Of a stretch of DNA of 32,004 bases, positions 7,646 through 7,830 are shown piece after piece. A model generated the notes under the pieces. It saw only the letters and a list, made by a program, of their open reading frames with translations, was not told where the DNA came from and did no database searches. Each line of letters opens with the position of its first letter. The first letter of the stretch is position 1. The DNA comes from Escherichia coli (GTDB lineage: Bacteria > Pseudomonadota > Gammaproteobacteria > Enterobacterales > Enterobacteriaceae). The stretch lies in the NCBI RefSeq assembly GCF_003334815.1, contig NZ_QOWO01000042.1. One strand, given 5' to 3'. Both the position numbers and the translations under genes were made by a program.

Positions 7646-7830
7646 GCCGGATGCGGCGTGAACGCCTTATCCGGTCTACCGATCCGGCACCAATGTAGGC
7701 CTGATAAGACGCGCCAGCGTCGCATCAGGCATCATGCACCAATTGCCGGATGCGGCGTAAACGCCTTATCCGGCCTACGGTTCGGACTATTTGTAGGCAC
7801 GATAAGACGCGACAGCGTCGCATCGGGCAT
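7646..7830. repeat. REP/BIME cluster: four REP palindromic units in two tandem ~95-bp copies
   Basis: GCCGGATGCGGCGTGAACGCCTTATCCGGTCTAC ... GTAGGCCTGATAAGACGCGCCAGCGTCGCATCAGGC, then a near-identical second copy (GCCGGATGCGGCGTAAACGCCTTATCCGGCCTAC ... GTAGGCACGATAAGACGCGACAGCGTCGCATCGGGC) between the convergent fadA and fre. Confidence 0.85.

Follow-up and report, generated by a model that had tools for sequence, protein, structure and literature searches.

Between the convergent genes fadA and fre, Escherichia coli carries a spacer rich in palindromic repeats, a locus that raises the question of what kind of element these repeats form, how it varies between strains and relatives, and what it may do to the transcripts that run into it. 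We addressed this question in a 32,004-nucleotide stretch of the E. coli chromosome (the window, to which all coordinates refer), in which fadB (4151-6466, plus strand) and fadA lie upstream of the spacer and fre and ubiD, on the minus strand, lie beyond it. The spacer measures 282 bp (7640-7921) and separates two coding sequences:

6476-7639, plus strand: fadA, stop codon TAA at 7637-7639 (NCBIfam TIGR02445 FadA, 806.9 bits; fadA in the matching RefSeq genomes).
7922-8623, minus strand: fre (NCBIfam NF005963, 403.9 bits; RefSeq annotation).

RefSeq records, MG1655 included, annotate no repeat features in this spacer. A 69-aa open reading frame at 7658-7867 was rejected as coding: it lies inside the repeat and is unannotated in every matching genome.

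Most of the spacer is a tandem array. Tandem Repeats Finder reports 7639-7830 as a tandem repeat with a period of 98, 1.9 copies, 85% matches, 3% indels and a score of 284, and a repeat search resolves two direct-repeat families (D1 and D2) spaced 98-99 bp apart at 89-90% identity, with every REP itself an inverted repeat. Its parts, with predicted hairpin energies on the plus and minus strands, are as follows:

About 7644-7742, no strand assigned: unit A, 98-99 bp.
About 7743-7840, no strand assigned: unit B, 98-99 bp.
7646-7679, plus strand: REP1, Y type, 33/34 to the Y consensus; hairpin -19.6 (plus) and -17.2 (minus) kcal/mol.
7680-7694: tail-to-tail linker between REP1 and REP2, 15 nt.
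7695-7730, minus strand: REP2, Z2 type, inverted relative to REP1, 36/36 to the Z2 consensus; hairpin -21.9 and -21.4 kcal/mol.
7731-7744: head-to-head linker between REP2 and REP3, 14 nt.
7745-7778, plus strand: REP3, Y type, 33/34 to the Y consensus; hairpin -21.3 and -20.9 kcal/mol.
7779-7792: linker between REP3 and REP4, 14 nt.
7793-7828, minus strand: REP4, Z2 type, 32/36 to the Z2 consensus; hairpin -16.3 and -15.7 kcal/mol.
7836-7845, plus strand: a fifth Y REP at the right end of the array, reduced to a degenerate, truncated left arm (GCCAGATACG versus GCCGGATGCG).

The stem of REP1 begins 6 nt past the fadA stop codon, and the right-end Y arm, degenerate here, is intact as TTGCCGGATGCGAC in other alleles, including one with no units at all. 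CTAC follows each plus-strand REP and GTAG precedes each minus-strand REP, every REP fold contains an internal mismatch bubble, and the hairpins are predicted at -16 to -22 kcal/mol on either strand; the minimum free energy fold of the whole 3'UTR pairs each Y with the adjacent Z2. REP4 has diverged furthest, with one compensated pair (T-A to C-G) and one stem mismatch, and across the locus only one or two stem pairs vary among the REPs.

Pattern searches allowing up to three mismatches match REP1 to REP4 and a single further copy in the window, whereas 100 dinucleotide-preserving shuffles gave no REP pattern match. An exact GCCTGATGCG at 8665-8674 was not counted as a REP, being a mere 10-mer that overlaps the ubiD stop codon. 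The further copy occupies a second convergent spacer:

26091-26711, plus strand: RhtB, convergent with RhtC.
26720-26753, plus strand: solitary Y-type REP, 30/34 to the Y consensus; hairpin -19.6 and -18.9 kcal/mol.
26773-27393, minus strand: RhtC, convergent with RhtB.

The solitary stem starts 8 nt past the rhtB stop codon and ends 19 nt from that of rhtC; it carries TTAC in place of the tetranucleotide and one compensated pair, C-G to T-A. All REP copies in the window are thus extragenic, between the stop codons of convergent genes, and a REP-containing query finds 10-61 places per genome, with a median of at least 38. Consensus matches and gene calls together bear out the sequence-only reading that had placed a REP/BIME cluster in the convergent fadA-fre spacer, and the lack of REP similarity that it had named as a refutation is contradicted by matches of 32/36 to 36/36 that are absent from shuffles. 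Its four REPs in two tandem copies stand as well, but the copies measure 98-99 bp instead of ~95 bp and share 85-90% identity, short of near-identical; the single REP that it saw between rhtB and rhtC is present and Y-type, one base away from the 26719-26752 it was given.

Alignment to the Y, Z1 and Z2 families, the check proposed in that reading, gives the type. Scored against the Y, Z1 and Z2 consensus strings, the REPs run Y(+), Z2(-), Y(+), Z2(-), with much lower scores for the other types. The strings are corroborated only indirectly, by the 36/36 match to Z2, by the Rfam naRNA4 model and by a published BIME-2 listing of the locus. BIME-2 elements are built of y and z2 REPs joined by short linkers, and they occur as tandem copies that differ in number between strains (Ton-Hoang 2012). 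Because it consists of Y-Z2-Y-Z2 with short linkers (15, 14 and 14 nt), the fadA-fre array is, by its sequence, a BIME-2. It also resembles REPIN/RAYT (TnpA-REP) substrates: the inverted REP doublet can fold as one long hairpin, and the GTAG/CTAC tetranucleotide and the stem mismatch, two REP features that TnpA-REP needs (Ton-Hoang 2012), are both present, with no RAYT gene lying within the window.

Read in the fre sense, the centre of the array also matches a known RNA family:

7698-7775, minus strand (fre sense): naRNA4-type unit (Y hairpin, linker, Z2 hairpin), Rfam RF02564.

This match covers the full model (1-77) at 92.1 bits, against a gathering threshold of 59.5, with about 90% identity to the model consensus, and its head-to-head linker aligns, with differences, to the naRNA4 'l' linker; the outer REPs match RF02564 as half-units only (33.9 and 25.3 bits). 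The HU-binding naRNA4 has been described as one Z2-l-Y unit of REP325, a six-unit BIME-2 between yjdM and yjdN in K-12. REP325 and the fadA-fre array share the Y hairpin, linker and Z2 hairpin and form tandem arrays in a 3'UTR, but REP325 has six units and lies between tandem genes, whereas the array has two units, lies between convergent genes and precedes a small RNA. Weak Rfam matches to mir-9416 and anti-hemB were dismissed as sub-threshold, the latter overlapping the terminator of that small RNA.

The locus is present in all 5,426 complete E. coli genomes. At 99% identity or more, 823 records match a 901-bp query and 886 a 521-bp query, and many independent complete genomes are identical to it. 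We counted alleles from the place lengths in 60 evenly spaced rows of the 521-bp query and dissected representatives of each length class, which separated the units into subtypes A (resembling 7644-7742) and B (resembling 7743-7840) and resolved the following alleles:

No units: 1 of 60 rows; 92-bp spacer that retains TTGCCGGATGCGAC.
One unit, A or B: 38 of 60 rows.
Two units, A-B, as in the window: 14 of 60 rows.
Two units, B-A: 2 of 60 rows.
Three units, as in K-12: 4 of 60 rows.
Off-locus match: 1 of 60 rows.

Zero, one, two and three units therefore occur in about 2, 63, 27 and 7% of the sampled rows, figures that describe a sample from a biased genome collection and are not a census. A comparison of copy number across strains, suggested beforehand, thus reveals a real polymorphism in both the number and the type of units. 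The idea that differences between the two copies could serve for strain typing holds insofar as the variation is real, but strains differ mainly in how many whole 98-bp units they carry and in what order, and less in the point differences between copies. BIME copy-number variation among E. coli strains has itself been published before.

The route between two of these alleles can be read base by base at a tract common to both Z2 REPs:

7715-7726 (in REP2) and again 7813-7824 (in REP4), plus strand: 12-nt tract CAGCGTCGCATC, the exchange point.

The K-12 spacer equals window positions 7640 to x joined exactly to y to 7921, with x anywhere from 7812 to 7824 and y from 7715 to 7727, so that its first 173-185 bp and last 195-207 bp are base-identical to the window. 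The three-unit K-12 allele (380-bp spacer) thereby corresponds to the two-unit window allele (282-bp spacer) plus one apparent unequal exchange inside CAGCGTCGCATC. Homologous misalignment or slippage would be enough for units to be gained or lost, and the transposase TnpA-REP would be superfluous, because homologous unequal exchange gives the K-12 allele exactly.

REP and BIME elements have been known since 1984-1991, and this locus has already been published as a BIME-2 that interacts with gyrase. Table DS3 of Sutormin 2019 (NAR) lists 'BIMEs2' of length 280 at 3610200-3610480, fadA>-<fre, in a W3110 derivative; this K-12 element agrees with ours in locus, flanks, Y and Z2 REPs and linkers, and differs in its three units. 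BIME-2 elements contain more gyrase cleavage sites than expected, with a preference for y REPs and no dependence on transcription, and the K-12 allele, the only one to which the cleavage data refer, contains none with ciprofloxacin, one with rifampicin plus ciprofloxacin, none with microcin B17 and three with oxolinic acid (Sutormin 2019). The generic suggestion of gyrase binding thus agrees with cleavage mapped experimentally at this locus in K-12.

The new point concerns the position of the array within the fadBA transcript. It begins 6 nt past the fadA stop codon and ends 46 nt before a conserved small RNA whose 3' end lies 3 nt from the fre stop codon:

About 7875-7918, plus strand: FadZ sRNA (putative boundaries), with 5' UUU at 7875-7877 as the RNase E site, a seed stretch and a terminator.

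The sole intrinsic terminator on the plus strand, a hairpin at 7891-7909 followed by a U7 tract at 7910-7916, stands past the array, and the BIME therefore lies inside the fadBA 3'UTR. On the minus strand the terminator hairpin is followed by AAGAACGG; fre therefore lacks a U-tract terminator, and its transcripts should enter the array from the other side. A scan of species-representative genomes with a FadA C-terminus pattern yielded 120 loci, in 32 of which the core CCGCCTGTCAGGGGCGG occurs exactly downstream of fadA, from E. coli to Yersinia; about 40 nt (UUUAGUUGCCGUUCUUCCCGCCUGUCAGGGGCGGGUUUUUU) are near-invariant over the same range, and everything upstream of them differs.

These features agree with FadZ (STnc790), an Hfq-dependent RNA of ~40 nt that RNase E cuts from the fadBA 3'UTR (Liu 2023 Nat Commun), whose processing needs three conserved 5' uridines and which in Salmonella acts as a repressor of ompD and ompC, with its presence seen in E. 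coli too (Liu 2023; Bar 2021 Front Microbiol). Its Hfq dependence and RNase E processing were shown in Salmonella, and its accumulation also in E. coli K-12, where its 3' end is placed at 4,027,232, its 5' end is listed as 'unknown' and dctA, kgtP, sucA, ompC and ompF are among its RIL-seq partners. Position 4,027,232 maps to window 7918, and both the conserved FadZ sequence and its terminator lie within 7875-7918, so that, judged on sequence and map position, the conserved element of about 40 nt downstream of the array is FadZ. FadZ is a neighbour of the BIME and not part of it, and the 3'UTR that holds both measures about 279 nt in the window, as against 196 nt in Salmonella. The main texts of the two FadZ papers mention neither REP nor BIME (Liu 2023; Bar 2021), and Bar 2021 gives no size for the longer fadA 3'UTR species; neither fadA nor fre appears in the main text of Dar & Sorek 2018, and in the supplements of Harris 2026 both appear only in the differential-expression table. 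The truncated fifth Y arm and the placement of the array in the fadBA 3'UTR, directly upstream of FadZ, had no part in the sequence-only reading.

The convergent fadA/fre layout is widespread in Enterobacterales, and the gap between fadA and FadZ is filled differently from genus to genus. Among the 120 loci, the Y-Z2 array turned up in just three species, E. coli, E. albertii and E. whittamii, the latter two with one unit each; within the sampled taxa, which do not include Salmonella, Klebsiella or Shigella, it is thus Escherichia-specific. In Citrobacter, Phytobacter and Pluralibacter, the stretch from the fadA stop codon to FadZ holds an ERIC-like element, a likeness that we presume from a primer-like motif, exact in only two loci. 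Enterobacter, Lelliottia and Kosakonia hold other, GTAGGCC-type palindromes in this gap; Yersinia, Pseudocitrobacter and a few others hold short GC-rich hairpins; and in Cedecea, Enterobacter sp. Ag1, Hafnia and Erwinia the gap is just 12-18 nt, without a hairpin. The ERIC/IRU-like elements and the genus-specific REPs resemble the Y-Z2 array in position and in their strong capacity to form hairpins, but their sequences are unrelated to it. The fadA-FadZ gap therefore tolerates, and often gathers, hairpin-forming repeats, and a hairpin is not obligatory, because E. coli itself has a 0-unit allele and in four genera fadA is followed directly by FadZ.

We assign a probability of roughly 90% to the reading that the spacer holds a two-unit BIME-2 with a truncated Y arm, inserted in the fadBA 3'UTR, within the sampled taxa specifically in Escherichia, whose units change in number by unequal exchange or slippage and whose local effects would be by-products of its hairpins. 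By extension from other REPs, the hairpins would act on the fadBA transcript as a barrier to 3' exonucleases, one that could go on protecting the fadBA mRNA once RNase E has removed FadZ together with the terminator hairpin. On the same grounds, read-through in both directions, out of fadA towards FadZ and out of fre towards fadA, might be partly attenuated by them; on DNA, the array would serve as a site for gyrase where two transcription units converge. REP325 was found to be both a partially Rho-dependent terminator and a stabiliser, and convergent gene pairs with a REP between them show higher expression of both genes, although what a REP does varies with its context and, across the genome, mRNA half-lives are not lengthened by terminal REPs (Harris 2026). 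The modest gyrase cleavage of the K-12 allele, with no ciprofloxacin sites, counts against the topological part of this mechanism. Stem pairs retained by compensation (T-A to C-G in Z2, C-G to T-A in the solitary REP) are consistent with selection on the hairpin, whether through an RNA function or through recognition by the transposase.

The strongest rival regards the array as a selfish or neutral, RAYT-dependent passenger in a tolerant gap, with no selected effect on fadBA, FadZ, fre or topology. We think this somewhat improbable, although it is the alternative that survives best: alleles carry anything from 0 to 3 units with no obvious constraint on the number, the same gap holds unrelated repeat families or nothing in different genera, and TnpA-REP cleaves and recombines BIMEs in vitro (Ton-Hoang 2012). 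It sits less easily with the compensatory changes that keep the stems paired, though these may serve transposase recognition, with the gyrase cleavage mapped at the K-12 allele (Sutormin 2019), and with the correlation between REPs at convergent genes and higher expression (Harris 2026). The passenger reading overlaps the BIME-2 insertion with hairpin by-products that we prefer: the origin is the same, and the consequences alone differ.

A second alternative would make REP1 a translational brake, its hairpin stalling the terminating ribosome and leading to tmRNA rescue and less FadA, with RhtB affected likewise. Ribosomes stall, and translation falls, where a REP lies less than 16 nt from a stop codon (Liang, Rudd & Deutscher 2015, as restated in PMC12306157), and the distance is 6 nt at fadA and 8 nt at rhtB; the 6-nt spacing is moreover constant in every REP-bearing allele and in E. 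albertii and E. whittamii. A single ancestral insertion could equally have left a constant spacing, however, and the 16-nt rule was shown for few genes, with fadA not named in the part of the text that restates it, so that we consider the brake doubtful, a little more so than the passenger.

Far less probable is that fre read-through yields a nucleoid RNA like naRNA4, in which the minus-strand Y-linker-Z2 unit would bind HU and condense the chromosome. The RF02564 match runs the full length of the model and well above its gathering threshold, and the founding RNA was described as an HU-binding Z2-l-Y unit of REP325, but such a match marks membership of the BIME-2 repeat family and not a dedicated gene. 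A preprint whose authors include the original senior author reports REP325 and naRNA4 to be without measurable nucleoid compaction, and REP-REP contacts to be neither enriched nor HU-dependent (Harris 2026).

An IHF-binding BIME-1 (RIP/RIB) is less credible still. BIME-1 elements are single-copy and pair z1 with y REPs across a long L linker, in which an IHF site is often present (Ton-Hoang 2012); they share with the fadA-fre array a Y REP, an inverted second REP and an intergenic 3' position, but their Z1, long conserved L linker with IHF site and single copy are absent here. Our best Z1 scores are far exceeded by those for Y and Z2, the linkers measure 14-15 nt, the array is tandem, and the IHF consensus WATCAANNNNTTR has no match in 7640-7921, its sole match in the window lying at 19530. 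We therefore rule out this type, and with it the generic remark on IHF binding, a BIME-1 property, which was all that spoke for it. That the duplication is an assembly artefact, a concern raised beforehand that draws on nothing more than the general risk of assembling tandem repeats, is scarcely conceivable, as the identical two-unit allele recurs in hundreds of independent complete genomes, the units differ at 10-15% of positions, the alleles fall into discrete classes and a third unit is present in K-12.

The array itself is thus correctly recognised, ordinary and already known, and the fresh point is its position in the tail of the fadBA mRNA, upstream of FadZ. To the known element our analysis adds its precise type, BIME-2, which takes IHF off the list of plausible partners, together with an allele catalogue for the locus and an exact recombination route between the two-unit and three-unit alleles. 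It also connects the BIME and FadZ literatures, which do not cite each other, by placing a variable BIME inside the precursor of a conserved sRNA that ties fatty-acid oxidation to porin expression. We regard it as a tentative and rather unlikely extension of the BIME-2 reading that strains may differ in FadZ output and in the stability of fadBA mRNA according to how many units they carry. If they do, each extra Y-Z2 unit would add partial, Rho-dependent or structural, attenuation of fadBA read-through and further exonuclease barriers, lineages with 0, 1, 2 or 3 units would differ in FadZ per fadBA transcript and in the persistence of fadBA mRNA after RNase E cleavage, and the regulation of ompC/ompF and of TCA transporters would shift during growth on fatty acids, with coding and promoter sequences unchanged. 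The natural alleles of 0 to 3 units could be used to test whether REP arrays tune the output of sRNAs derived from 3'UTRs.

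The BIME array in the fadBA 3'UTR is a mosaic rather than a simple variable of unit count, since the E. coli allele L006 (NZ_CP094339.1, strain W224N) carries its two unit subtypes in the order B then A, whereas the window carries A then B. A second E. coli allele, L007 (NZ_CP024056.1), which is rare in the species, is without a complete REP at spacer positions 121-212 and retains the Y left arm TTGCCGGATGCGAC, and looks less like a site that was never occupied than like one from which recombining direct repeats have deleted the units.

The gap between fadA and FadZ that the BIME fills in Escherichia also differs among genera. 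Loci from Citrobacter, Pluralibacter and Phytobacter (L012, L018, L024, L026, L065, L074 and L113, each covered over the first ~135-290 nt past the fadA stop) hold at the equivalent position a different hairpin-forming repeat of ~130 nt, which looks ERIC/IRU-like; among these seven loci, the ERIC2-like motif AAGTAAGTGAYTSGGGTGA has exact matches in L012 and L113 only. The fadA stop leads almost directly into FadZ in Enterobacter sp. Ag1, Cedecea neteri, Hafnia paralvei and Erwinia persicina, with 12-18 nt from the stop to the FadZ core (loci L021, L039, L029 and L041), and this short gap may represent the ancestral 3'UTR, free of repeats.

Downstream of the array, and elsewhere in the window, lie the following features:
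7875-7918, + strand: FadZ, a published sRNA, which forms the conserved terminal stretch of the fadBA 3'UTR
14921-15172, - strand: Erse small RNA (Rfam RF02757), full-length match
19882-19920: tandem repeat of the 19-bp unit GCCGCGCGGGTTTCAGGCCA, 2.0 copies, score 57 (Tandem Repeats Finder)
26720-26753, + strand: solitary Y REP, starting 8 nt past the rhtB stop

FadZ comprises an RNase E site (UUU), a seed stretch, a terminator hairpin (7891-7909) and U7, and because the fre stop codon lies 3 nt beyond its 3' end, read-through of fre would run antisense to it. The solitary REP has a compensated change in its outer stem, with GTCGGAT...ATCCGAC replacing GCCGGAT...ATCCGGC, and its foot reads TTAC as opposed to CTAC. 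The RF02757 match scores 319.5 bits, where the gathering score is 138, and probably corresponds to the EsrE transcript from the ubiJ (yigP) region.

One open reading frame traverses the BIME itself:
7658-7867, + strand: 69-codon ORF with a GTG start

This frame is almost certainly spurious, and its annotation is absent from every matching RefSeq genome. ORFs of this kind are able to mislead gene callers.
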